This document shows, in pieces, positions 11,872 through 56,840 of a stretch of 64,000 nucleotides of DNA; the first letter of the stretch is position 1, and each line of letters begins with the position of its first letter. The translations under genes were made by a program, and so were the position numbers. This DNA comes from Thermoproteota archaeon. GTDB taxonomy: Archaea; Asgardarchaeota; Jordiarchaeia; Jordiarchaeales; Freyrarchaeaceae. A model generated the notes under the pieces. The model searched no databases and was not told the DNA's origin. It was given only the letters and a program-made list of their open reading frames with translations. The stretch spans positions 16,497-80,496 of the forward strand of contig JAPDJY010000006.1 of NCBI GenBank assembly GCA_029258835.1. Reading direction: 5' to 3'.

Positions 11872-12026
11872 GGGCGGGTAGTCTAGAGCTGGGTTGACTG
11901 GCGGAGAACTTGGTATGACACGATGGATTAAACAGGGTCCATCGCGTGATGCCGGCTTCGGGAGCCGGCGGTCCCGGGTTCGAAACGTGCACTGGATTGC
12001 ACGCGAGACTCCTGGCCCGCCCACCA
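11872..12026 (+). tRNA. tRNA-Pro(CGG) with three introns at positions 15/16 (11887-11908), 25/26 (11920-11950) and 59/60 (11985-12009); CCA encoded
   Basis: Acceptor stem GGGCGGG/CCCGCCC-A-CCA; anticodon arm CCGGC-TTCGGGA-GCCGG (CGG at 11959-11961); removing the three inserts gives a 77-nt cloverleaf with D-arm GTCTAGCTTGGTATGAC and T-loop TTCGAAT. Confidence 0.93.
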
Positions 12027-44148: not shown

Positions 44149-44200
44149 GGGTGGTCCCCACCTCCACCAGCAGTTTAGGGAGGTGGTTCAGCCCTCACCC
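44149..44200 (-). promoter_or_regulatory. Candidate SECIS element (eukaryote-like K-turn hairpin) overlapping the vhuU stop codon
   Basis: GG-GCT-GA-A-CCACCTCC-[CTAAACTGCTGGT]-GGAGGTGG-G-GA-CC: tandem G.A core, 8-bp upper helix, AAA in the apical loop. Confidence 0.65.
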
Positions 44201-44337
44201 AATACTACCTCTTTCTCGGCAACTTTCCTGCCCTTGTGGTCCACCACGATTAGATGTGCTGAGCATGCCAGTCAGCAGTCATAGGCTCTCATAACCATCT
44301 CGATCAGGTTCAGAAGCTTGGGGTCAACGTCCACCAT
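44188..44337 (-). CDS. vhuU: Selenoprotein VhuU, small subunit carrying the C-terminal Ni ligands of the [NiFeSe] hydrogenase (49 aa, Sec22)
   Basis: MVDVDPKLLNLIEMVMRAYDC-U-LACSAHLIVVDHKGRKVAEKEVVLGEG; in-frame TGA at 44272-44274; GGAGG SD; upstream large subunit lacks the L2 motif. Confidence 0.93.
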
Positions 44338-44389
44338 TAATCAATCCCTCCACAACTTTTCATCCAAATTGGGAAAACCCTTATGCGTC

Positions 44390-45718
44390 CTACTTAAACC
44401 ATGGTTCTGGAAACTTTAACTTCTCGTGTATTTTATCCTCGAATATCTGCTTCGCTGTAACTAGCATCGACTTCTCCACTGCTGCGATGTTATTGTTTGT
44501 TGCCACGATCAGGTTCGCCTTCTTTATCACTCCCTCGTCATCCGTCCAGTAGTTGTAGATGAGCGTCCCTCTGGGGGCCTCAACGATCGCTACCCCCACG
44601 CCCTCCTTCGGAGTCACCGTTTCAAGCTTAACGTCGGCACTAACTATTTCAGGATCCTCTAGCAGCTTCTTAGCTTTTTCAACAGCCTGAACCAGCTCGA
44701 TTATCCTAGCCCAGTTGTAGGCAAGAGTTGCATGGCATGGTCTCCCAACAGTGTCCCTGAACTCCTTAAGGAGCTCCTGGGCTTTCGGCGTCTCCATCCT
44801 GTCGGCAACGTTGATCCTCGCCAGTGGACCTGCACGCCATATTCCGTCAGGGTAGCCGGCAGGCTTAAAGAAGATGTGCGTAGCGTACGAGTGAGGGGCG
44901 ACACGCTCTCCGGCGTACTTGAGGTAGTCCCCCTTCGGGAAGTCCGCTGCAACCTTACCGTCAGGGTCCATGACTCTAACCGTCGCCTTGGGATCATAGA
45001 TTGTGTGAACTCCCTCAACGTTCAAGCCAATGTAATATGTGGGCACAACTCCGAGCTTCGTGATCACGTCAAGGTATCCTTCAACGATCTTCCTCGTCAC
45101 TTCAACGGTGAAATCAGCCAGTTCCTCGCCCTCATTGACCAGTTTAAGCAGCTCATCCCTTTCCTCCTCGGTTAACCGTTTAGCCATTCCTCCCGGAATC
45201 CCCGTGACAGGGTGGACAGAGCGGCCGCCCACATACCTGCAGATCGTCTGACCAACACGCATAAGAGCTATAGCCTTCTTAGCAGCGTCAGGCATGTTCT
45301 TGATTATCCCAACAAGGTTCCTTACGGATGGATCGGCGAATGGACCAGCCAGAAAGTCTGGTGCGGCTAGAGCATAAAAGTGCAGTGCATGACTTGAAAT
45401 CTGCTTACCCTGCATTAAAAGGTCTCTAAGCTTCACCGCTGCAGAGGGTGGAGTAACATCCCATGCAGCCTCAACAGCCTCTAAGCTGCATACGTGATGG
45501 GGCTCAGGGCATATCCCACAGATCCTCGGAGTCAGCCGTGGAGCCTGCTCTGCGAGACGCCCTTCAAGAAACTTCTCAAACATGCGTGTGAGAGTGATGC
45601 TAAACATCAGGTCGTCCACTTCGCCCCTCTCGTTCAGCTTAAGAACTATTTTCGCATGACCCTCAAGCCTCGTCGCAGGCTCAATAACAATAGTCCTTTC
45701 CTCACCCATTTTCCCCAC
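44390..45718 (-). CDS. vhuA: F420-non-reducing hydrogenase large subunit (split type, lacks C-terminal CxxC)
   Basis: TRLEGH, L1 motif RICGICPEPH, EAPRGTL, IVAT; ends without RAYDPCxxCxxH. Confidence 0.93.
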   Translation of the reverse strand: MGKMGEERTIVIEPATRLEGHAKIVLKLNERGEVDDLMFSITLTRMFEKFLEGRLAEQAPRLTPRICGICPEPHHVCSLEAVEAAWDVTPPSAAVKLRDLLMQGKQISSHALHFYALAAPDFLAGPFADPSVRNLVGIIKNMPDAAKKAIALMRVGQTICRYVGGRSVHPVTGIPGGMAKRLTEEERDELLKLVNEGEELADFTVEVTRKIVEGYLDVITKLGVVPTYYIGLNVEGVHTIYDPKATVRVMDPDGKVAADFPKGDYLKYAGERVAPHSYATHIFFKPAGYPDGIWRAGPLARINVADRMETPKAQELLKEFRDTVGRPCHATLAYNWARIIELVQAVEKAKKLLEDPEIVSADVKLETVTPKEGVGVAIVEAPRGTLIYNYWTDDEGVIKKANLIVATNNNIAAVEKSMLVTAKQIFEDKIHEKLKFPEPWFK

Positions 45719-46633
45719 CTACTTCCTCCTGTCAGTTACCGCCCTCGGTATTATCGCTGATGGAAGAGTAAACCTGCTGAACGTGCCGACAACATCCTTA
45801 ACAGCCTTAACAAGCTCCTCAGGACTGACCGACTCGTAATCCACAATCGACGCCAGCGCGCTAAGCATCTTAGCCCCCTGATCCAACACGTTAGGCCCGG
45901 GACCCATACACCCCTTGCAAGGGACCCCCGCAGACGGACACACCGCGCCGCACCCCGCCCTAGTCGCAGGACCCATGCAGATGTACCCTTGCTCCAGCAG
46001 GCACTTCTCAGGGTCAGGTATGCCCTCAAAGTCCCTCTTAATCTTCTTAACAACCACAACGTCCGATTTAACACGTGGACACTCGTCGCAAAGGGTTCTC
46101 TCCTTAAGCTTCGGCATCTCTCCTTTAAGGAGGCTAGTTAAAACCTCCGCTATCAGCTTAGGCTCAGGAGGACACCCCGGCACTAACAAGTCATACTTGA
46201 CGATGGACGGATTCGGCTTCACGTAGTCAAGCATCTTGGGAACCACCCTGTCGGGTATCCTCCCATCAACTACGCTCTCAGCCTCCATGAACTTACGCCT
46301 CAAAGCCTCATCGATAGGGTAGAGGTTCAGAAGCGCCGGAAGCCCCCCGAAAGTGGAGCATGCACCATAAGAAACCAGCATTTTACACTTCTGACGTGCA
46401 AGCTTCAACAAGTGAACATCCTCTTCCGTCCTGCAGAAACCCTCTGTGAGGCCAAGATCCACCGAGCCGTCGGGGAGCCCCTCAAGATCCTTAAACTTAT
46501 AATCCACGACAGTATGCCAAAAAACTATGTCAAGCTGCGGGATCACATCGAGCAACGCCTCATGCAAGTCTAATAGACTCTGCCAACAACCCCAACAGCT
46601 ACTGAGCTGAATGAATGCTACCTTAACTGGCAT
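45719..46633 (-). CDS. vhuG: F420-non-reducing hydrogenase small subunit
   Basis: SCWGC, GAC...GG, PGCPP, CDEC, CLLEQGYICMGPAT...C...CP....C.GC. Confidence 0.95.
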   Translation of the reverse strand: MPVKVAFIQLSSCWGCWQSLLDLHEALLDVIPQLDIVFWHTVVDYKFKDLEGLPDGSVDLGLTEGFCRTEEDVHLLKLARQKCKMLVSYGACSTFGGLPALLNLYPIDEALRRKFMEAESVVDGRIPDRVVPKMLDYVKPNPSIVKYDLLVPGCPPEPKLIAEVLTSLLKGEMPKLKERTLCDECPRVKSDVVVVKKIKRDFEGIPDPEKCLLEQGYICMGPATRAGCGAVCPSAGVPCKGCMGPGPNVLDQGAKMLSALASIVDYESVSPEELVKAVKDVVGTFSRFTLPSAIIPRAVTDRRK

Positions 46634-46646
46634 GTTAAAACCTCCA

Positions 46647-47063
46647 TTATCCTTTTCGAAGCGGGCTTGGCCCAAGCTCCTTAAGTTTTTTAACAAATTC
46701 TTCGACTGCGTTTACGAGCTCTGCCCCCTCGCTTGCCGATATCCATTTAAGCATTAACCTGTCGGGGTTTAAGCCTAGCTGATGTAGCATCGCCCTTAAG
46801 AGGGCGATCCTGCGTTCAGCACGGTAATTTCCTCTGACGTAGTGGCAATCTCCGGGATGGCAGCCGGCAACTAGGACGCCGTCGGCGCCCAGCTCGAAGG
46901 CTTTCAGGACGAATTGGGGGTCGACTCTGCCGCTGCATAAAACTCTGATGATTCTGATGTTTGGCGGGTACTGCATCCGGCTCGTGCCGGCCATGTCGGC
47001 TCCTGCGTAACTGCACCAGTTACAGAAGATGCCTAGGATCTTGGGTTCGAAGCCGTCGCTCAT
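46647..47063 (-). CDS. mvhD: Hydrogenase delta subunit MvhD/VhuD (Cys form)
   Basis: FCNWCSYAGAD, CSGRVD, GCHPGDCHY, WISASE. Confidence 0.96.
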   Translation of the reverse strand: MSDGFEPKILGIFCNWCSYAGADMAGTSRMQYPPNIRIIRVLCSGRVDPQFVLKAFELGADGVLVAGCHPGDCHYVRGNYRAERRIALLRAMLHQLGLNPDRLMLKWISASEGAELVNAVEEFVKKLKELGPSPLRKG

Positions 47064-47386
47064 TTCCATCATCTCCTTCATATAGTGAGGGGATGGTAAA
47101 GGTAAAAACTCGTATTTCACGAGCTTCTTTCCTTATTTTAAAGTTTCGGGAGAGGCTGCGTGTCACCCTTTAAGGCTGAAGCCATAGGTGGCTGCCATGT
47201 TTCTTAGGTCGTTGAGGTGGGGAACGGTGGAACATGTTTTTTCAACTTTGTTGCGAGACGTCGGCTCGGAGGGATTCTGGGCTTTCAGCGGAAAAGATAA
47301 ATATTTTTAGTAGTCTTAAGTTGGTTGCGTTAGGGGGGCTCCCCCCGCAGCTGCATGGTTACTTTAAAGCTTGAAGGAGGCTCTTT

Positions 47387-49363
47387 ATGGGTGAGAAGGT
47401 GGGCGAGGAACCGCGGGTAGGCGTTTTCATATGTCATTGCGGCACCAACATTGCCGGCGTAATAGATGTTGAGGAACTGGTCAGGTATGCTTCGAAGCTT
47501 CCCGGGGTGGTCGTCGCTAAGGATTACAGGTTCATGTGTTCCGATCCGGGTCAGAACCTCATCAAGGAAAGCATAAGAGACTTTAAGCTTAACAGGGTCG
47601 TGGTTGCCGCGTGTAGTCCGCGTCTCCACGAGGAAACGTTCAGGGAGACCGTGAGGGAGGCCGGCCTTAACCCTTTCCTTTTCGAGATGGCGAACATAAG
47701 GGAGCATTCAAGCTGGGTTCACATGTGGCAGCCTAAGGAGGCGACGGAGAAGGCTAAAGACCTTATAAGGATGGCTGTTGCTAAGGCTAGAGACCTGGAA
47801 CCCCTAGAAGTCAGGAAGGTTCCGGTTAAACCGTCCTGCCTCGTAATTGGCGGGGGGATAGCAGGCATATCCGCCGCCTTAGACTTAGCCGATGCAGGAT
47901 TCGAGGTTCACCTTGTTGAGCGTACACCTTCCATAGGGGGCCATATGGCCCAGCTTGATAAAACGTTCCCTACAATGGACTGTTCCGCATGCATTTTAAC
48001 TCCCAAAATGGTTATGGTGTCCCGCCACCCAAACATAAAATTGCACACTTACTCGGAAGTAGTAGACGTCGACGGATACGTTGGAAACTTTAAGGTTAAG
48101 ATCCCTGAAAAGGCGAAGTACGTGAAGGATCGTGAATGCACGGGTTGTGGGCTCTGCGCCGATGTCTGCCCGGTGCACGTTCCCAACGAGTTCGAGCTAG
48201 GGCTTGGTGCAAGGAAGGCTATTTACATACCCTTCCCTCAGGCAGTCCCTAATACTTACGTCATAGATAAGGAAAAGTGTATCGAGTGCGGCCTATGTGC
48301 GCAGGTATGCGAAGCCCAAGCCATAGACTTCAACATGAAGGATAAGGAGGTCGAGGTGGAGGTAGGCACGATAATAGTTGCCACGGGCTACGACATTTTC
48401 CACCCTTACGAAATGCAACAGTATGGTTACGGTAAGTACGAGAACGTGATAACCTCCCTTCACATGGAGCGTCTCCTAAGCGCCTACGGCCCAACCGGGG
48501 GGAAGGTTGTCGTCCCCTCGACGGGGGAGAAGCCGAAGCGGATAGCCTTCATCCAATGCGTCGGCTCAAGGGATGAACACTACTTCCCCTACTGCTCGAG
48601 AGTCTGCTGCATGTACAGTCTTAAGCATGCAAGGCAGATAAAGGAAAAGTACCCCGACGCTGAAACCTACATTTTCTTCATAGACATGAGAACCTTCGGG
48701 AAAGGGTACGAAGAGTTCTATGAAACGGCAGCTAAGGAGTACGGTGTCAAATGCATTAGAGGCAAGGTGGCCGAAATATACGAGGACCCCAAGACCAAGA
48801 AGCTTATAGTTAGGGCCGAGGAGACCCTTCTAGGAGACCCAATAGAAATGGAGTTCGACTTGGTCGTGCTAGCCTCCGCCGTAAAGCCGAGCGAAACAAC
48901 GGACGAAATACAAAGGATACTAAAGCTTTCAAAGAGCCCTGACGGCTTCCTCTTAGAAGCACACCCCAAGCTAAGACCCGTAGACACGTTCGCAGATGGA
49001 GTGTTCCTTGCTGGGATGGCTCAAGGCCCAAAAGACATACCCGACGCGGTCTCCCAGGCTAAGGGCGCCGCATCCGGGGCAGCCGCCCTAATGGGGAAAG
49101 GCGAGGTCGAGATAGAACCGTACTACGCAGTGGTAAACCAGGAAATATGCTCCGGTTGTAAAACGTGTAGTGGAATATGCCCCTACGGAGCAATAAGCTA
49201 CAACGAGGAGGGAAAAGCGGAAATCAACAGCGTACTCTGTAAGGGCTGCGGGGCATGCGCGGCGGCATGCCCAAGCGGAGCCATAGAGCCAAACCACTTC
49301 AAGTTCAAGCAGATCTTGGATACGATAATAGCAGCATTCCAAGAAGAAACAACATCAACATAA
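47387..49363 (+). CDS. hdrA: Heterodisulfide reductase subunit A (Cys form)
   Basis: CHCG.NI, ACSP..HE, GGGIAG, KTFPTMDCSAC, ferredoxin motifs, QCVGSR, GPKDI. Confidence 0.97.
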   Translation: MGEKVGEEPRVGVFICHCGTNIAGVIDVEELVRYASKLPGVVVAKDYRFMCSDPGQNLIKESIRDFKLNRVVVAACSPRLHEETFRETVREAGLNPFLFEMANIREHSSWVHMWQPKEATEKAKDLIRMAVAKARDLEPLEVRKVPVKPSCLVIGGGIAGISAALDLADAGFEVHLVERTPSIGGHMAQLDKTFPTMDCSACILTPKMVMVSRHPNIKLHTYSEVVDVDGYVGNFKVKIPEKAKYVKDRECTGCGLCADVCPVHVPNEFELGLGARKAIYIPFPQAVPNTYVIDKEKCIECGLCAQVCEAQAIDFNMKDKEVEVEVGTIIVATGYDIFHPYEMQQYGYGKYENVITSLHMERLLSAYGPTGGKVVVPSTGEKPKRIAFIQCVGSRDEHYFPYCSRVCCMYSLKHARQIKEKYPDAETYIFFIDMRTFGKGYEEFYETAAKEYGVKCIRGKVAEIYEDPKTKKLIVRAEETLLGDPIEMEFDLVVLASAVKPSETTDEIQRILKLSKSPDGFLLEAHPKLRPVDTFADGVFLAGMAQGPKDIPDAVSQAKGAASGAAALMGKGEVEIEPYYAVVNQEICSGCKTCSGICPYGAISYNEEGKAEINSVLCKGCGACAAACPSGAIEPNHFKFKQILDTIIAAFQEETTST

Positions 49364-49624
49364 ACGCTAAGAATCATAATAAGACGCCAATAAAAGCCAC
49401 ATATAACCCCACTGAAAACACAACTCATCAGGATCGTTTCGAGCTCGAAATCCATAATCAAGTGGATGAATAAGGGCTCATCTCTTATCACTCTTCTCCT
49501 TTATGATTTTATCTCTCATTTTCTATCCTCTTATTTTCTGTAAATGTTTATATCTTTTTCAAAAAATTTATTAAGTTGCTTCTTCCTTGAAGGCTCGCTT
49601 TTGAACGGTTTTACTGTCTAATGG

Positions 49625-50907
49625 GTGCGGTGTGTTAGAGGGGTCGGCGTGTTTGAGGGGTCGTGGAGAGGTGAAAGGAGAAAGAAAAGTGAGGGAGATG
49701 TTAGCGAGGTGGCTGATGAGGGGTTGTCGTGGCGGGAGGAAGTACTGTTAAGGGTTGGCAAGGCTGCAAGAGGAAGACACTCCACTCAGCCGCCGTCAAA
49801 ACTGAACGCTGTGGTTAAAGAAGCCTTCTCGAGAGAAAAAGTAGCGAAAAAGAGGCGTTTGACAGGGAGGTGCAGAGGGCAGTTAAGGGTAAATTAGAAG
49901 GCAGCCGAAACATGCTAACAATACCTTACTTCAGGCAGAGGCAAGTAAAGCGAGGAAAAACCGACGAGAAGCTCGCTTTTTAGTAAGGAGGCGGAGGAGA
50001 GAATTAAAAAGATTAAAGACGAGGCTAAGATATTTGAAAAGGAAGAAGCTCTTAGAGGTAGAAATCTTAGTTTTTCGGTAGTGAGTGATGGGAAAGTAGG
50101 AGAGGAAAGGGAGGGGAAGGAAAGGAAGAGTTGAAGAAGGGGAGGGAGGGTGAAGCTGGGCGGGCGGGTGAGGGAGGTGTGGGATGGCGGGAGGGGGCTG
50201 GAGGGCTTGGGGTGGAGGCTGGCGTTCCCGGGCGGGTTTCTCCTTTCGAGGTTGCTGAGCTTCTTTACAGAACTGAGAGAGTGTTAAGAGGTGATCCGGG
50301 GGTTAAGACTGGTGAGTTGTTAGAGAGGATTGTAGAGGAGCTTAAAGATGACGGGTTTGAGGGAAGGGTTAAGAGAGTTGCTCTCGGCTTACGACGGGAG
50401 CTAGGACCACTAGAGGATGTTCCCGGTAAAAAACTCGTAGAAGTGCTTAAGAAAGTGTTGCGGACTGTAAATGGCGCCTCGAGGCATTCTAGTTTGAAAG
50501 TTCCCGTACCGCAGGAAATCACGGAAAGAGGACTTCTTAAGGTGAAGATGGGTGGTATTTCCCTTAAAGAGTGGGACGTCATGAAAAATTTTCTCAAGAA
50601 TAAGGGGGTAGACGTAGACGAGATGGTAAGGGAAGGAGTAGTGGAGGTCATGATCATAAACGTTAGAAAGTGGGGGGAAAGGGTTGTCATTGCTAAGGGG
50701 TGGACTGAACTTTACAACAAGGTCAACGAGAAAGGCTTGACAATTAAAGAAATATGCAGAGAGGTAAACAAGGAAAAGGAGGCGGGAGAACCTAAACTGG
50801 CTGAGAGTACAGTAGCCCGGTTTTTCTGGTTTGTTAATGTTAAATCATCAAAATTTATTTTTCCCCTTAAAAAACATATTTTTTTCTTAAAATTACAGAA
50901 ATTGTAA
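49625..50907 (+). pseudogene. Degenerate, truncated paralog of the N-terminal half of the large protein at 51334-54408
   Basis: Shared blocks GELLERI/GELLEKV and IAKGWTELY...GLTIKEICREV/IIEGWEKLY...NLSIMDLGREI; broken by stops; runs out into AT-rich DNA at ~50830. Confidence 0.6.
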
Positions 50908-51052
50908 TGTAACGATGTTAAAATCGTAGATAAGCCAAAATAAACATGCACTTTTTGAACATTATGCAGAGGGGAGGCGAAGATTCACATTTGATTCGAT
51001 TAAAAGCTCAATTCTTTATATTTTTCAGCCCACAACAGTAAAATATATATGT

Positions 51053-51337
51053 TTGATGGGGTTTGTAGGGTGGCGTCCTGCAGGAGGTGGAGAGGCGCCC
51101 CCATCCCGACGTCTTATCCGTATGAGGGGTGATCGGGGTGAAGCTCCGAAGGGTTATTACGCTGCTCGTAGCCGTGACGTTTCTCATTCAAGGTGCTGGA
51201 TGATCGCTACGAAACCCGGTATGGACCGGTTGAAGTCCGCTAAGGAGGGTGCCTGGAAAGAAGGGTTAGCGAAGTTAGTTGAGCTGGTCAAGGAGGACTT
51301 TAACCCCCCGGGAAAGCTGGAGGTGGGTTCGCGTTGA
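51053..51337 (+). CDS. Hypothetical protein overlapping the start of the large ORF (TTGA overlap)
   Basis: 94-aa ORF after an AT-rich TATA-like region. Confidence 0.4.
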   Translation: MMGFVGWRPAGGGEAPPSRRLIRMRGDRGEAPKGYYAARSRDVSHSRCWMIATKPGMDRLKSAKEGAWKEGLAKLVELVKEDFNPPGKLEVGSR

Positions 51338-54300
51338 AGGAGTGGGGCTTCGAACGGCCGGAGCGGCCCGAGAAAAGCGGAGGAAAACCACCAGAAGAGG
51401 AGTACGCCGAAAAAATGGTCAGGCTAATCACCAGGAAACCGCCCGAGGAGGAGCTTGCCAGGATGGCCGGGTTCACCCCCTCCACAGGCAGGGAGTTGCT
51501 CAACTCCAAGCCAGGCAAAACAATGGGGGCGCAGGAGGGAAAAAAATACTCAGGAGGGGGACGGGAGAAGCTCAGCCAAGGGTTTATCAAACATTGGGAG
51601 AAAGTAGGAGGAGAGGGGAAGAGATCGAGAAGAGTGGTTGAGGAAGGGTGTGTGCTGGCTTTACCTTCCGAGTTGAGAGAATTTTATCGTTTTAGTTTGA
51701 TTTCGTCTGGTGAAACTATGGGTGAGTTGCTGGAGAAGGTTAGGGGGGTTGGTGGGGTTGTTGGGGGGATTGCTAAGAGGTTGATGGAGCGGCTTACTTC
51801 ATTACTTAAGCTTGAATGGAATGAGAAAAGTGGGATTAAAGCTAGTGAGTTTTTAAAGTCATTTAATGAGGTGTTATGGGGAGGTAGTGGTAATGTTCCT
51901 GGGTTATTGAGAAGAGGCATTCCAACGCCACCTGAAATAGCTAAGGGTATTGAAAGACTTGTAGAGGAATTGGGCTCTGCGAAAAAGGTTGCTTCATTAT
52001 TTGCTAAAGTAGGTGTTAAGACGGATGAAGCTGTCGTTCTCGCTATGGCTGGCAGACTTGGTTTTGCTCTTGAGCAATGGAACAGGCTGAAAGAGAAGTT
52101 GAAAATAGAGGAAGACAAGATTAGTGTTGAATTTGTTCAACGTGAGAGGATATCGGTGAAAGTTGAAAATGTTCGTCTCGGGAAAGGCGAGATTAAGGTC
52201 GAGTTCGGGAGATCCTCTAAGGGGGAAGAAAAGGTTTACATTATTGAAGGATGGGAAAAGCTCTATGACATAATATCGGAGAGCAATTTGTCGATAATGG
52301 ATCTTGGGAGAGAAATCGGAGTAAATCATACCATTTTGTCTCGTGCCCTTAGGGTTGTAAGCGTTGAGAAGGTTGATGCGGCCGCCAAAATTTTGGGCTT
52401 AGAGTCGCCAGTGAAGATAAGCATCGATGAGTTAGCCTTACGACTTGCCGTTAAGCTTACACCCCCCATAGTTCCAATAAGGAAAGGTGTTATAACTGTT
52501 TTTAATTCACGGATTGCAGTTCGCGACTTCAGGGCTAAGCGTATCGCTACCCCAGAAGGAGTGATTAAAACAGATATACATTTAATGAAGCGATATAATT
52601 CACCGTTACTCAAAGAAGTAGCGTTGGATATAGTAAAGAAGCTGGGGGGAAAGGCGGAGAAATACCCCGTAATCTTCCGTAAAGTAGGAATATACTCACT
52701 AGGCGGCTTCATGCTTAAGATAGGAAGCATTAAGGATGAGAAAGGTTACACGAGGGAGGTAAAGGGAGGTGGTGTAGCAGGGATAGATGCTGTGGCACTA
52801 GCTGTCCTAGTAGCGGACACGTTGGGGCTTAAAAAAGCGAAGCAATTTCTCGAGTCGTTGAGACCTGGGGAAATAATCCTTAAGGATAGGTTTAGGGTGG
52901 CGGCTGAAAAGGAGCTTGAGAAGGTCGCCTATAACCCCCTCGAATTCGTCGAGGCATGTATGAAGCTTTTCGACGTTAAAGGTAACGTAAAAGAGGTGGC
53001 ACTTGGCATAGGGATGATTGAAGGGTTCGCATCCTCGGACGCATCCGTAATTGGAAGCTTCTCACATGGCAGTTTAACTAGGATTGAAGAGGCTGAGCTG
53101 TCTGTTTGGGCAATAAAAACAGTATTCGGAACAAGCGTCAGAATATCACAGCGTGGCGACGGGAGATACTACGTCGATGTTCGAATTCCAAGACTTCTTC
53201 TTGATGTAACAGGATATAAAGGGGAGAGAAAGGTTAAGAGCGGCGAAACTGTTCCGAGGAAGCTCTTTGAGAGAGTGAACAAGTGGCTAAAAAAGGGGAA
53301 GGAAATAAAGCTAAGAGAGAGTGAGAAACGCAGAGTTGACGTAGCCATACTTGAAGCTGGGGGACTAATAAGCGCAATGGTGATGGGAGATGGAAACGTT
53401 AACGTAAAAGAGTTCATAGTTAAAGTTGAACAGAGGATGGTCGTCGGTGACACTAGAGGGAAAGGAGTAGTAAGGGAGTTCGGTGAAAAATTAGAAGGTA
53501 TTCTGAGAAAGCTTACAGGAAAAGAGACGCCAGAAGAAATCATCCGAGAACTACATAGAAAGAAGATAATAGAAGAATTTGTCAGCCCTTCGGGTTATGT
53601 AGAGTGGTTGCTCAAATTTGGAAAGCTGAAGAAGATGTGTGAAGAGAGAGGATTGAAGGAGGAGTTTAGAAAGCTTACGGAAGTTATGATATGGCATCCC
53701 GGCCTCGGACGGACGAAAATAATCGCGAAGAGACTGCTCAAGGCGCTCGTAAACCGCTTCAACATAAGAAGACCAAAAATACGGGTAGAATTACAACATG
53801 GCAGATTCATCTTGAATGTGAAAAGCGACCGGATAATAGTCAAAAAAACTGCTAAGCTGATGTTTAGGGGGTGGAGCGCCGCACTGCTTCTCTTACCATT
53901 CCTCAAAGGTTCTAAAGGGTTTGAGCTTGCAAAGGCGGTGATGCATAGAATAGCGGGACACGTGATAGAGTTGAGTCCAAAGGAATCCAAGTTACTCGTC
54001 AGTTGGGTACAAGATAATCATAAAAAACTCGAAAGAGAGGGAAGACTAAACAGTGTTAAAGGAATACTTTATGTTCACCTTCCACCAACCATGATGAGAG
54101 ATGTTGAATTACGGATTCCAGAATGGGAGAACAATGAGATAAAGGAAGAGGTAAAAAGCAGTGTGAGAGAGTTTATGAGCGGAAAAAAGTTTAAAGATAG
54201 GGAAACTGTAGAAGACCTGCTGGAAAGGGCTGAAATCAACCTTGAAAAGCTGGAACCCTTACCTCACACGGTAGAAGTTTACAACTGGAGAAGTGATGGT

Positions 54301-54408
54301 AAGATTAGTGGGAGTGAGTGGTGTCGAGTCTACTATGCTCCAGATCCAAGACCGCTTTACAACGGAATGAGAAAACTAGAAAAGGACTTCCTAGAGGACA
54401 GAATATGA
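51334..54408 (+). CDS. Large basic protein with HTH-like segment and two LAGLIDADG-like motifs
   Basis: 1024 aa, K/E/R-rich; SIMDLGREIGVNHTILSRAL (HTH-like); MIEGFASSDASV and LISAMVMGDGNV. Confidence 0.6.
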   Translation: MKEWGFERPERPEKSGGKPPEEEYAEKMVRLITRKPPEEELARMAGFTPSTGRELLNSKPGKTMGAQEGKKYSGGGREKLSQGFIKHWEKVGGEGKRSRRVVEEGCVLALPSELREFYRFSLISSGETMGELLEKVRGVGGVVGGIAKRLMERLTSLLKLEWNEKSGIKASEFLKSFNEVLWGGSGNVPGLLRRGIPTPPEIAKGIERLVEELGSAKKVASLFAKVGVKTDEAVVLAMAGRLGFALEQWNRLKEKLKIEEDKISVEFVQRERISVKVENVRLGKGEIKVEFGRSSKGEEKVYIIEGWEKLYDIISESNLSIMDLGREIGVNHTILSRALRVVSVEKVDAAAKILGLESPVKISIDELALRLAVKLTPPIVPIRKGVITVFNSRIAVRDFRAKRIATPEGVIKTDIHLMKRYNSPLLKEVALDIVKKLGGKAEKYPVIFRKVGIYSLGGFMLKIGSIKDEKGYTREVKGGGVAGIDAVALAVLVADTLGLKKAKQFLESLRPGEIILKDRFRVAAEKELEKVAYNPLEFVEACMKLFDVKGNVKEVALGIGMIEGFASSDASVIGSFSHGSLTRIEEAELSVWAIKTVFGTSVRISQRGDGRYYVDVRIPRLLLDVTGYKGERKVKSGETVPRKLFERVNKWLKKGKEIKLRESEKRRVDVAILEAGGLISAMVMGDGNVNVKEFIVKVEQRMVVGDTRGKGVVREFGEKLEGILRKLTGKETPEEIIRELHRKKIIEEFVSPSGYVEWLLKFGKLKKMCEERGLKEEFRKLTEVMIWHPGLGRTKIIAKRLLKALVNRFNIRRPKIRVELQHGRFILNVKSDRIIVKKTAKLMFRGWSAALLLLPFLKGSKGFELAKAVMHRIAGHVIELSPKESKLLVSWVQDNHKKLEREGRLNSVKGILYVHLPPTMMRDVELRIPEWENNEIKEEVKSSVREFMSGKKFKDRETVEDLLERAEINLEKLEPLPHTVEVYNWRSDGKISGSEWCRVYYAPDPRPLYNGMRKLEKDFLEDRI

Positions 54409-55292
54409 CAGAGGAATTTAAAAAGCTCAAAGAAATTGTTAAGGCTCTTGACTTTAGTAGATTGCTTAACGTTGAGGAGGAGCGAGTGTTCGAGAGAGCG
54501 AAAGACCTCGTATCACAACTAGACCTTGAAAAGCTGAGAACTAGGGATGGAGTAGAGAAAGAAAAGTTTGAAGCAGTTCTCAAGCTATCGAGGGTGTTTG
54601 CTGAAAAGATACTGGAGTGGCTTGGAAGGCAGCCGCCAGACTCAAACAAGCCCATAATGGGCATGGAGCTGAAGGAATACTGGAAAGTAGAAAACAGCCT
54701 GTGGCGTAAGGCGGAGGAAGAGTGGCGTGCCTATGCCTACGCTGCACGCTACCTGAGCATTTTCGGAGAACTCGCAAACAAGCTGATAGTCAGGAAACTT
54801 TACGACGAGGCATTGAGGATTGCCCTCACCATACCGTGGTTTCACCCCCCGGAGCTAGTAGCAAACATAGAGCTCCTCAGTGAGGAAGACCTAAGTCGAA
54901 CTGCTAAGGAAGCAGAAGAACGTTTTAATGCGTATAGTGAGGTCGCTCTGACCTCTGGTGTGGAGTGGACAGAGGAAGTAGAAGAAGAAATCAGAGAGCT
55001 GGCTATAAAGAAGAGAGACGTAATGCTGGATGAAATGATAAGCTACTTAGAGAGCTCCCTGAAGGAGAGTATGTCGAGAAGGGGGGTTCTCGGGCTGCTT
55101 GCAGCATGCGCCAAAGACGATGATGAAGCCCTAAAAGCTATACTAAACCATCTAGACGAACTGAGTAAGTGGGACAAAGCCATAGTAGCAAGCAAGCTTA
55201 GATATAGGCATAAGGAAATTGCAAAGAGAATATATTCAAACTTAAGGGAGGCAGGAGAAACGTACCGCATGCTGGAGGAGGTCTGGTGCTGA
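54405..55292 (+). CDS. Acidic all-helical hypothetical protein coupled to the upstream gene
   Basis: ATGA overlap with the 54408 stop (MTEEFKK...); E-rich helical repeats. Confidence 0.65.
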   Translation: MTEEFKKLKEIVKALDFSRLLNVEEERVFERAKDLVSQLDLEKLRTRDGVEKEKFEAVLKLSRVFAEKILEWLGRQPPDSNKPIMGMELKEYWKVENSLWRKAEEEWRAYAYAARYLSIFGELANKLIVRKLYDEALRIALTIPWFHPPELVANIELLSEEDLSRTAKEAEERFNAYSEVALTSGVEWTEEVEEEIRELAIKKRDVMLDEMISYLESSLKESMSRRGVLGLLAACAKDDDEALKAILNHLDELSKWDKAIVASKLRYRHKEIAKRIYSNLREAGETYRMLEEVWC

Positions 55293-55359
55293 TCCAGAAA
55301 AACGTTTTTATATCCCCGCCTTCTAAGTGGGGATGAAACGTCCAGTTTAAGTTAAAAGG

Positions 55360-55953
55360 GTGGTAAAGATGTCCTCTAGTAGGCTGATTAAGGAATTTGA
55401 CACAGATTTCACCCGGGAAGTAATAGATTTCGGATCTAAGTTTTTCCCTGAAGTAGAAAATTTTAGGGCATGTATCCAGTGCGGGACGTGTACTGGTAGC
55501 TGTCCTAGTGGCCGCGAAACCGCGTGGCGCGTGAGGAAGCTAATAAGACAGGTTCAGCTGGGTCTTAAGGAGGACGCAATAAGAAACGATGCCTTATGGA
55601 ACTGCACTACATGCTACACTTGCAGCGAATCCGCTTTGCATGTAGCAAGCGGTCGCTAAAGGTGTCCCCGCCTAATCCCTATCACCGACATAGTCCGTAG
55701 TGTAAGGAACATCGCCGTCTATAATGGTATTATGCTGCCAAGACACGTTCAAGTGGCCGGCTTACTTATTAAGTACGGCCACGCCGTCCCAATTAACGAT
55801 GAAACTAGGGAGGTAAGGAAGGAGCTTGGACTAGACGAGACGCCTCCCACAGTTCATGCCTTCCCCGACGCCTTAGGGGAGGTTAAGAAGCTACTGGAGG
55901 ACACGGGTTTCATCAGGCTAATAGAAGAGGCTGGAAGGGAGGGTTCTAAGTGA
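55360..55953 (+). CDS. hdrC: Heterodisulfide reductase subunit C, interrupted by a 30-nt intron (55630-55659)
   Basis: CIQCGTCTGSCP; spliced second motif CTTCYTCSE|RCPR; GHAVP and PPTVH C-terminal motifs; coupled to hdrB. Confidence 0.92.
55630..55659 (+). other. BHB-type intron in a protein-coding gene
   Basis: TCCGCTTTGCATGTAGCAAGCGGTCGCTAA; central helix AGCG/CGCT, bulges AA^T and AA^A, inner stem CCGCTT/AAGCGG; excision restores frame and Fe-S motif. Confidence 0.85.
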
Positions 55954-56840
55954 GTAGGTATGCTTACTTTCTAGGATGTTTAACTCCCAACAGGTATCCT
56001 GGAATTGAGACCGCAACTATCGACCTTTTAAGGCTTTTTGACATAGAAGTTGACTACATGAAGGGTACCTCCTGCTGCCCTGCTCCAGGAGTTTTCGGCT
56101 CTTTCGACCTTAACACGTGGATCGTCATAGCCGCTAGGAACATCACTATAGCCGAGGATATGGGTGCAGACATAACGTTAACCTGCAACGGGTGCTATGC
56201 TACGTTGCAGGAGGCAGACCACATGCTTAAACACAATAGGGAGCTTGTGATAGACGTCAACCGGCGTCTTGCAAAGGTAGGAAGAGAGTACAAGGGGACG
56301 GTTAACGTGATACACATCATGGAGATACTTTACAAGGAAATTGGACCGGAGAAAATAAGGGACATGGTTGTTCAGCCGCTTGAGGGAGTTAAAGTAGCAT
56401 GCCACTATGGCTGCCACTTCCTGAAGCCTAGCGATATAAGACAGCAAGGCAACCCTGAAAACCCGACGATGATGGAAGAACTCATTGAGGCCATAGGCGC
56501 TGAGCCGGTGGAGTACCGGGACAAGAACATGTGTTGTGGTGCGGGGGGAGGTGTAAGAGCCGGAAAAATAGACTTAGCATTAGACATGACCCGTAGAAAG
56601 ATAGACGCGATGATGGAGGCTGGAGCCGACTGCGTCGTTACACCGTGCGTATTCTGCCACTTCCAATTCGACGTCGGCCAGGCCGAAATTAACAATAGGC
56701 TTGGAGCCGAGAAATATAAGCTACCAGTAGTGTTCATCACACAGCTCATTGGGCTGGCCCTGGGAATGTCCCCGAGGAGAATGGGTCTTCACAGAAACCG
56801 CACACAGGTGAAAACCCTCTTGGACAAGGTCTTCGCCTAA
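55950..56840 (+). CDS. hdrB: Heterodisulfide reductase subunit B
   Basis: FLGC, SCCPAPG, CNGC, HYGCH, CCGAGGG, CVFC..QFD. Confidence 0.96.
   Translation: MSRYAYFLGCLTPNRYPGIETATIDLLRLFDIEVDYMKGTSCCPAPGVFGSFDLNTWIVIAARNITIAEDMGADITLTCNGCYATLQEADHMLKHNRELVIDVNRRLAKVGREYKGTVNVIHIMEILYKEIGPEKIRDMVVQPLEGVKVACHYGCHFLKPSDIRQQGNPENPTMMEELIEAIGAEPVEYRDKNMCCGAGGGVRAGKIDLALDMTRRKIDAMMEAGADCVVTPCVFCHFQFDVGQAEINNRLGAEKYKLPVVFITQLIGLALGMSPRRMGLHRNRTQVKTLLDKVFA

Follow-up and report, generated by a model that had tools for sequence, protein, structure and literature searches.

The stretch of DNA analyzed here, a 64,000-nucleotide window from the genome of an uncultured Jordarchaeales (Asgard archaeon), carries an Mvh-Hdr gene cluster in which two genes contain stop codons within their reading frames. 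The vhuU gene, which encodes the Ni-binding-motif peptide of a split [NiFeSe] hydrogenase large subunit, has an in-frame TGA, and hdrC holds a short insert that ends in TAA. How are these two genes read, and does their decoding decide whether the complex is made? Our analysis makes it highly probable that vhuU is decoded with selenocysteine (Sec) and that the hdrC mRNA is spliced by EndA and RtcB in the manner of a tRNA, likely constitutively. The selenocysteine half of this answer is already known, whereas the mRNA intron half is much more unusual.

The window corresponds to positions 16497-80496 of contig C5 in an assembly (G000) of 2.72 Mb in 91 contigs that is 94.7% complete. It was compared with 40 relatives, including the Jordarchaeales genomes G001 and G005-G010 and one distant Asgard genome, G011.

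The insert in hdrC

The hdrC gene (55369-55953, + strand) has 30 extra in-frame bases, at 55630-55659, that lie between the codons GAA and AGG and end in TAA. Read in a single frame, 55360-55953 gives ...WNCTTCYTCSE-SALHVASGR*-RCPRLIPITD..., and Pfam places a 4Fe-4S dicluster fragment at 55360-55659 (+). HdrC is a protein of about 185 residues encoded beside hdrB, and its two CxxCxxCxxxCP motifs are complete only once the insert is removed. Removal joins CSE to RCPR, which restores the second [4Fe-4S] motif and yields a product of 184 residues. Overlaying the two halves on solved HdrC chains places this junction exactly. Exon 1 (55369-55629, ending ...CTTCYTCSE) aligns up to residue 85 of 5ODC_C, and its N half ends at the same residue on 9SFI_E; exon 2 (55660-55953, beginning RCPRLIPITD...) aligns to 5ODC_C from residue 86, with zero residues gained or lost at the 85|86 abutment. 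An earlier reading of the DNA from its letters alone, which we call the sequence-only reading, had proposed that hdrC contains an intron, and this stop-containing insert with its exact junction bears the proposal out.

Because three independent public assemblies carry the identical insert, it is not an assembly error. The possibility of a repeated element was also rejected, as the sequence is unique within the genome. Public gene calls report the gene as two open reading frames (ORFs) of 96 and 73 amino acids.

Comparison with relatives shows that the insert comes and goes. Four species of a sister genus, which belongs to the same family as the window genome, have uninterrupted hdrC orthologues. 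The other Jordarchaeales family is represented by six species of one genus: hdrC is uninterrupted in G005, G007 and G010, whereas G006, G008 and G009 have an insert at the identical codon boundary, of 30 nt in G009, 30 nt in G008 and 39 nt in G006, a complete genome (L016:341-370, L018:1471-1500 and L019:1462-1500). Every one of the hdrC inserts holds stop codons, and the inner sequences of those in the other family are unrelated to that of the window. In the gene tree, intron-bearing and intron-less alleles of the other-family genus are intermixed, with G009 and G010 differing by 10%, so the presence of the intron is polymorphic on a short time scale. Among metagenomic HdrC homologues, all 55 whose two halves could both be located lack an insert, in a scan that ranks contiguous tblastn matches and in which interrupted copies may be under-sampled. 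A search for proteins of near length with the 96-residue fragment returned only the window's own cluster, as the shortened form, and the nearest HdrB locus in the genome contigs searched (JAWCFL01, 81%) has no hdrC upstream.

The insert and its flanks can form a relaxed bulge-helix-bulge (BHB) motif. In the window, AGCG at the end of exon 1 (55624-55627) is complementary to CGCU at the 3′ end of the insert (55654-55657), which gives a central helix (H2) of 4 bp flanked by 3-nt bulges, AA|U and AA|A, on opposite strands, and a 6-bp inner helix closes the insert. In G006, G008 and G009, H2 is CAAG/CUUG, so that both partners differ at three of the four pairs. Across the four alleles the 5′-side bulge is AA|U or AA|A, the 3′-side bulge is AA|A, and the inner helix has 4-6 bp. 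Cutting between the second and third bulge residues, the rule for the cbf5 intron (PMC2738675), removes exactly 55630-55659. The glutamate codon before the site is GAA in all four intron-bearing alleles and GAG in all seven intron-less ones, a split that fits a constraint on the A-rich bulge, given that this codon would supply the first bulge. On this modeled fold, the hdrC motif is a relaxed HBh′ or bulge-helix-loop-like form, as in most cbf5 introns.

Selection on the downstream part provides a separate line of evidence. Between the window and intron-less relatives, the 24 codons after the in-frame stop show a proportion of nonsynonymous differences (pN) of 0.09-0.12 against a synonymous proportion (pS) of 0.66-1.0, and the whole of exon 2 is under purifying selection as strong as that on exon 1. 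The first 24 codons of exon 2 contain no start codon. Purifying selection thus acts before any possible start, which means that translation runs in one frame from exon 1 into exon 2. As judged from these substitutions, the pattern excludes a simple pseudogene or an independently initiated fragment.

Introns in other genes and the enzymes that would remove them

The hdrC insert does not stand alone. Nine further protein genes in this genome (on contigs C27, C7, C28, C8, C51, C6 and C4, and at two sites on C1) have BHB-type inserts of 20-43 nt that were found by homology, not by structure. The sole EF-1alpha gene (698 bits; other matches fall under the family cut-off) has a 43-nt insert inside GHVDHG|KST, in the P-loop, with an H2 of CGGC/GCCG, bulges AA|U and AA|G and an inner helix of 10 bp. 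In a Sec-containing vhuD paralogue on C7, 22 nt are inserted a single base ahead of the first UGA; H2 there is CUGG/CCAG and the bulges are AA|A and AA|G.

Seven hosts came from a scan in which ORFs of relatives were compared with the genome by tblastn and split alignments were sought with no structural criterion. Pfam names them as a hexapeptide transferase, a Toprim (DnaG-type) protein, a Ras-family GTPase, a protein-isoaspartate methyltransferase (PCMT), an aconitase-family protein, an S-adenosylhomocysteine (AdoHcy) hydrolase and one unknown. ORFs from 400 kb of the same-family genome G001 gave one split alignment among 501 with matches, and ORFs from 1.2 Mb of the distant Asgard genome G011 gave six credible ones among 809. 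Extrapolating from the latter puts the genome total very roughly at 15-25, a figure that underestimates introns near gene ends; the EF-1alpha intron was in fact missed by the scan. Three candidates, C38:18153, C19:4648 and C11:36181, proved to be adjacent genes or low-identity gaps. An apparent internal TAG in an HdrA-MvhD fusion on C6 is merely the terminal stop of that gene, and a pyrrolysine reading of TAG was rejected, since pyrrolysine is restricted to Sifarchaeia (PMC9723677) and the stop in the window is TAA.

All ten inserts, hdrC included, are 20-43 nt long and have an H2 with four of four positions paired in the register set by the protein alignment. Their 3-nt bulges begin with A in 19 of 20 cases (17 of 18 without hdrC) and with AA in 14 of 20; the inner helix has 4-10 bp, and the outer helix is weak, at 0-3 bp. 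The hdrC intron is thus one of at least ten in ordinary protein genes and not a device specific to hdrC. The sequence-only reading had supposed that short, stop-containing BHB introns are common in this lineage and are mis-annotated as pseudogenes. Such introns are common in this genome, with ten verified here, and public gene calls split hdrC in two. One outcome that would have refuted that reading, an hdrC insert without any counterpart, is excluded by the other nine.

Are suitable enzymes encoded? Two EndA homologues are. The one of 190 residues, on C1, keeps the Tyr/His/Lys triad; its closest solved match is the catalytic subunit of the Aeropyrum pernix heterotetramer (3P1Z_B, E 4e-46), and the alignment covers the loop region GQPLGIRKPK, the counterpart of the crenarchaeal-specific loop. 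The second, of about 197 residues on C6, has alanine at the position of the catalytic histidine. From these sequences, the EndA of this genome is predicted to be an (alpha-beta)2 arrangement, which has been inferred for most Asgard genomes (preprint 10.64898/2026.10.13.758758), and (alpha-beta)2 and epsilon2 are the types that cut non-canonical introns (PMC5829648). The broad-specificity splicing endonuclease that had been postulated is thus matched by a two-subunit type with a catalytic alpha subunit and a His-less paralogue. RtcB was also found (607 bits).

The window itself contains a tRNA gene that would need the same enzymes. The tRNA-Pro(CGG) gene (11872-12026, +) is 155 nt long and has three introns of 22, 31 and 25 nt at non-canonical positions; ARAGORN recognizes it only without these segments, as a 77-nt tRNA with an encoded CCA. 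On the unprocessed window, neither default ARAGORN nor Rfam reports a tRNA, relaxed ARAGORN gives noise only, and Rfam at its gathering threshold and at E<=1 finds nothing, neither a tRNA nor a selenocysteine insertion sequence (SECIS). The three introns announced by the sequence-only reading are real, although introns 2 and 3 fit better with their boundaries shifted 1 nt in the 3′ direction. Introns 2 and 3 have the strict hBHBh′ form (H2 paired at four of four positions, inner helices of 9 and 6 bp, outer helices of 4 and 5 bp), and intron 1 is relaxed, with one mismatch in H2. The layout of intron 3 (UUCG-AA|A ... CGAG-AC|U) is the same as that of the hdrC insert. Across the whole assembly, ARAGORN reports few tRNA genes, most of them with a predicted intron at a site other than the canonical 37/38 position; a large share of this genome's tRNA set evidently escapes standard tRNA finders.

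We propose the following path for the hdrC transcript. Its last exon bases, AGCG, would make the 4-bp central helix with the CGCU near the 3′ end of the intron. AA|U and AA|A would then be cut between the second and third bulge bases by the (alpha-beta)2 tRNA-splicing endonuclease, and RtcB would ligate the exons, giving the full-length HdrC with its second [4Fe-4S] motif restored.

Several observations weigh against this proposal and should be set beside it. The hdrC insert falls short of the strict hBHBh′ form, because the exon-exon helix at the 3′ cut has only 1 bp. The minimum free energy fold puts the 3′ cut in a 2x2 internal loop, and its 6-bp outer helix (ACACUU/AGGUGU) is offset by 2 nt. 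The window allele also has one extra U (55653) opposite bulge 1, although the versions in G006, G008 and G009 are clean. All four hdrC inserts have lengths that are multiples of three (30, 30, 30 and 39), compared with none of the nine other coding-sequence introns. The motif alone is weak evidence: structure-only scans of the genome, with H2 pairing read in parallel orientation as the control, showed no excess for the strict hBHBh′ form (1302 versus 1221), for AA bulges (6925 versus 6027) or for a relaxed form with an ORF-rescue filter (6725 versus 6569). The BHB motif is too short for intron finding without homology, and homology-based detection was therefore adopted. Finally, we infer from sequence that the mRNA is cleaved and ligated at all.

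The closest known system is the cbf5 pre-mRNA intron of Crenarchaeota (Desulfurococcales and Sulfolobales; PMC2738675). It is likewise a short coding-sequence intron with an unconventional or relaxed BHB motif and the same predicted cut, it occurs with a hetero-oligomeric EndA, and its presence among relatives is patchy. The present case differs in lying in Asgard Jordarchaeales, in hdrC and inside an Fe-S motif, in having A-rich AA|N bulges, and in involving at least ten intron-bearing protein genes in one genome rather than a single gene. The non-canonical tRNA BHB introns of archaea, including those in the heavily interrupted tRNA genes of Asgard archaea (preprint 10.64898/2026.10.13.758758), share the motif geometry and the presumed enzymes. 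Here, however, the host is an mRNA and the outer exon helix has 0-3 bp, compared to the 4-5 bp of tRNA-Pro introns 2 and 3. The terms ‘mRNA’, ‘cbf5’ and ‘Jordarchae’ do not occur in that preprint, nor does the word ‘intron’ in the description of Jordarchaeia (PMC9723677), and, apart from reviews, a literature search for archaeal mRNAs with BHB introns yielded the cbf5 studies alone. In the papers searched, cbf5 of Crenarchaeota is the one archaeal protein gene whose message is documented as a substrate of the tRNA endonuclease.

Probable selenocysteine in vhuU and the layout of the cluster

The second interrupted gene, vhuU (44188-44337, −), is a 49-codon ORF whose in-frame TGA (44272-44274, −) stands at the first cysteine of DPCxxCxxH, the Ni-ligand cysteine. 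It reads MVDVDPKLLNLIEMVMRAYDC-U-LACSAH..., with the local motif D-C-U-L-A-C-S-A-H (RAYD-C-U-LAC-SAH), and aligns to the C-terminal 30 residues of MvhA (422-451) and to a 27-residue VhuU chain. It lies immediately downstream of the gene for the large subunit, which is missing the C-terminal Ni motif. Ten of 11 Jordarchaeales genomes preserve one in-frame TGA, and throughout the order the motif has vicinal cysteine and selenocysteine, D-C-U-x-x-C-x-x-H rather than D-P-U (44272-44280, −, in the window; loci L144-L152). A single extra paralogue, in G008 (L148), has cysteine instead (D-C-C...S-A-F) and lacks the terminal histidine.

A SECIS-like hairpin with a UGA...GA core lies at 44150-44195 (−). 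Its helix has 16 pairs, 7 of which show compensatory double changes across nine relatives, and its A-rich apical loop has a GAAAC/UAAAC apical region. In a comparison that included loci L144-L146, the core UGA doubles as the vhuU stop codon in two of the three genera, namely the window's own and that of the other family, whereas in the sister genus vhuU ends in TAA and a separate AUGA core follows about 20 nt downstream. In the window, then, the UGA would be decoded as selenocysteine under the direction of this hairpin, a eukaryote-like SECIS that begins at the stop codon of vhuU itself. SepSecS was found in the genome (405 bits), and SelB, PSTK, SelD and tRNA-Sec have been published for the class Jordarchaeia (PMC9723677). 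Selenocysteine use in Jordarchaeia and Asgard VhuU, MvhD and HdrA selenoproteins with eukaryote-like SECIS elements have likewise been published (PMC9723677, PMC11227280). The recoding of vhuU suggested by the sequence-only reading is thus sustained, both by the conserved TGA at the Ni-ligand cysteine and by the covarying hairpin.

These features match the split VhuU/VhuA [NiFeSe] hydrogenase of Methanococcales and the Asgard selenoproteome (PMC11227280, PMC9723677) in having a small VhuU peptide with selenocysteine at the Ni-ligand cysteine, a eukaryote-like SECIS with a UGA...GA core, and SepSecS. They differ from known VhuU in the D-C-U motif and in the use of the gene's own stop as the SECIS core in two of three genera. 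The assembly has two further [NiFe] large subunits, both membrane-bound and group-4-like. Vhu is therefore the only Mvh-type hydrogenase found in it, and a selenium dependence of Vhu function is plausible. Two vhuD paralogues elsewhere in the genome, C31:11605-11973 and C7:13058-13405, each have two in-frame TGA codons at CxxC-type cysteine positions.

Pfam assigns the remaining genes of the cluster. The large subunit gene vhuA (44390-45718, −; PF00374) matches profile positions 1-79 and 323-464 of 508 only. It is followed, at rising coordinates, by vhuG for the hydrogenase small subunit (45719-46696, −; PF01058), by mvhD with its FlpD domain (46647-47120, −; PF02662, 190 bits), which is a cysteine form with no internal stop, and by hdrA for the flavin/FeS subunit (47387-49363, +; Fer4 and Pyr_redox_2), likewise a cysteine form and uninterrupted. 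The hdrB gene (55950-56840, +; PF02754) encodes two CCG domains and overlaps the 3′ end of hdrC. By Pfam, all six MvhAGD-HdrABC subunit genes are present and syntenic in the window, and G001 has the same cluster, contiguous. MvhAGD-HdrABC may form one physically associated electron-bifurcating complex.

The distance from vhuU to hdrC is 11 kb in the window compared to 5.5 kb in G001. One correction applies to the sequence-only reading, which listed hdrA together with hdrB and hdrC: about 6 kb of unrelated ORFs (49364-55359) separates hdrA from hdrCB here. Because hdrA, hdrC and hdrB are contiguous in G001, we interpret this segment as an insertion into an otherwise conserved cluster. Its three ORFs of 258, 1024 and 324 amino acids (50131-55292) have no Pfam match. 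The segment has a strongly positive GC skew and a lower GC content. Paralogues of the 1024- and 324-residue proteins occur on C7 (20456-26244), C15 (42973-43776) and C31 (327-1850), contigs that also hold vhuD or hdrA-mvhD genes. The segment may be an accessory module or a mobile insertion.

Alternatives to the proposed constitutive splicing, and implications

Splicing of hdrC could in principle serve as a switch, such that the production of HdrC, and with it of the bifurcating complex, waits on the supply of both splicing capacity and selenium. A retained intron would indeed truncate HdrC at the in-frame stop, after 1.75 cluster motifs, and the hydrogenase partner that needs selenocysteine is the sole one of its type in the assembly. 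We nevertheless regard this as improbable. The intron is present in three and absent from three species of one genus in the sister family, and it is absent from all four species of the other genus in the window's own family, with the cluster otherwise unchanged, so it is dispensable. EF-1alpha, DnaG, AdoHcy hydrolase and others need the same reaction; because the single-copy EF-1alpha gene needs it inside the P-loop, splicing has to be an efficient, general reaction and not a dedicated switch. Beyond the helices, no regulatory element is conserved in the hdrC intron. The gating of complex assembly by splicing, which the sequence-only reading had put forward, is thus unsupported and rather disfavored, and constitutive splicing of hdrC is most likely.

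A slightly poorer account is that the insert inactivated or split this hdrC and that paralogous hdrCB pairs supply the function. Such pairs exist: besides this one, no fewer than three intact hdrC-hdrB pairs are encoded, of which two lie on C6 and one lies on C15 next to an HdrA-MvhD fusion. Seven MvhD-domain genes occur as well, and public gene callers show two fragments of the window's hdrC. The intact paralogues that had been raised as a possible objection to the intron are therefore real, but they are only 29-40% identical to the window copy, which speaks against this account; they might be alternative partners of Vhu. Since the window copy is under purifying selection, with exon 2 held as strongly as exon 1 and having no start codon of its own, it is in use. 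In addition, the interrupted gene persists in four species of two families with the BHB register always intact.

Translational bypass of the phage T4 gene 60 type, with ribosome take-off at GAA, landing past the insert and no cutting of RNA, is the least likely of the three: T4 gene 60 also has a short stop-containing gap with a hairpin in a continuous reading frame, and G006, G008 and G009 repeat the take-off codon GAA as the final insert codon, with a stop directly after the take-off codon in G008 and G009 and a hairpin in the gap, but the final insert codon in the window is UAA, which leaves take-off and landing codons unmatched, and a covarying helix joins exon bases to the 3′ end of the insert, a pairing that EndA needs and bypass does not, in an architecture shared with tRNA-Pro intron 3 and nine other genes that points instead to RNA cleavage.

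Taken together, these observations favor constitutive splicing of the hdrC message by the tRNA-splicing enzymes. More tentatively, and with the balance of our judgment still against it, ordinary Jordarchaeales mRNAs might host a population of tRNA-type introns that turn over, marked by A-rich bulges and weak outer helices and gained or lost from one sister species to the next. Insertion at the hdrC site, which falls between the third Cys codon block and RCP, would then have recurred independently in two families, and retention in hdrC or in the Sec-containing vhuD paralogue could tune the amount of bifurcating complex.

For annotation, the consequence is that gene callers systematically split or discard real genes in metagenome-assembled genomes of this kind, and such calls distort metabolic reconstructions, for example by reporting HdrC as missing or truncated. 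For the organism, a member of the archaeal group closest to eukaryotes, tRNA-endonuclease chemistry appears to be needed for a core energy-metabolism subunit, EF-1alpha, DnaG, AdoHcy hydrolase and a Ras-family GTPase, among others. If the more tentative picture of turning-over introns is true, message splicing by EndA and RtcB would be an everyday part of expressing genes in an archaeon closely related to eukaryotes.

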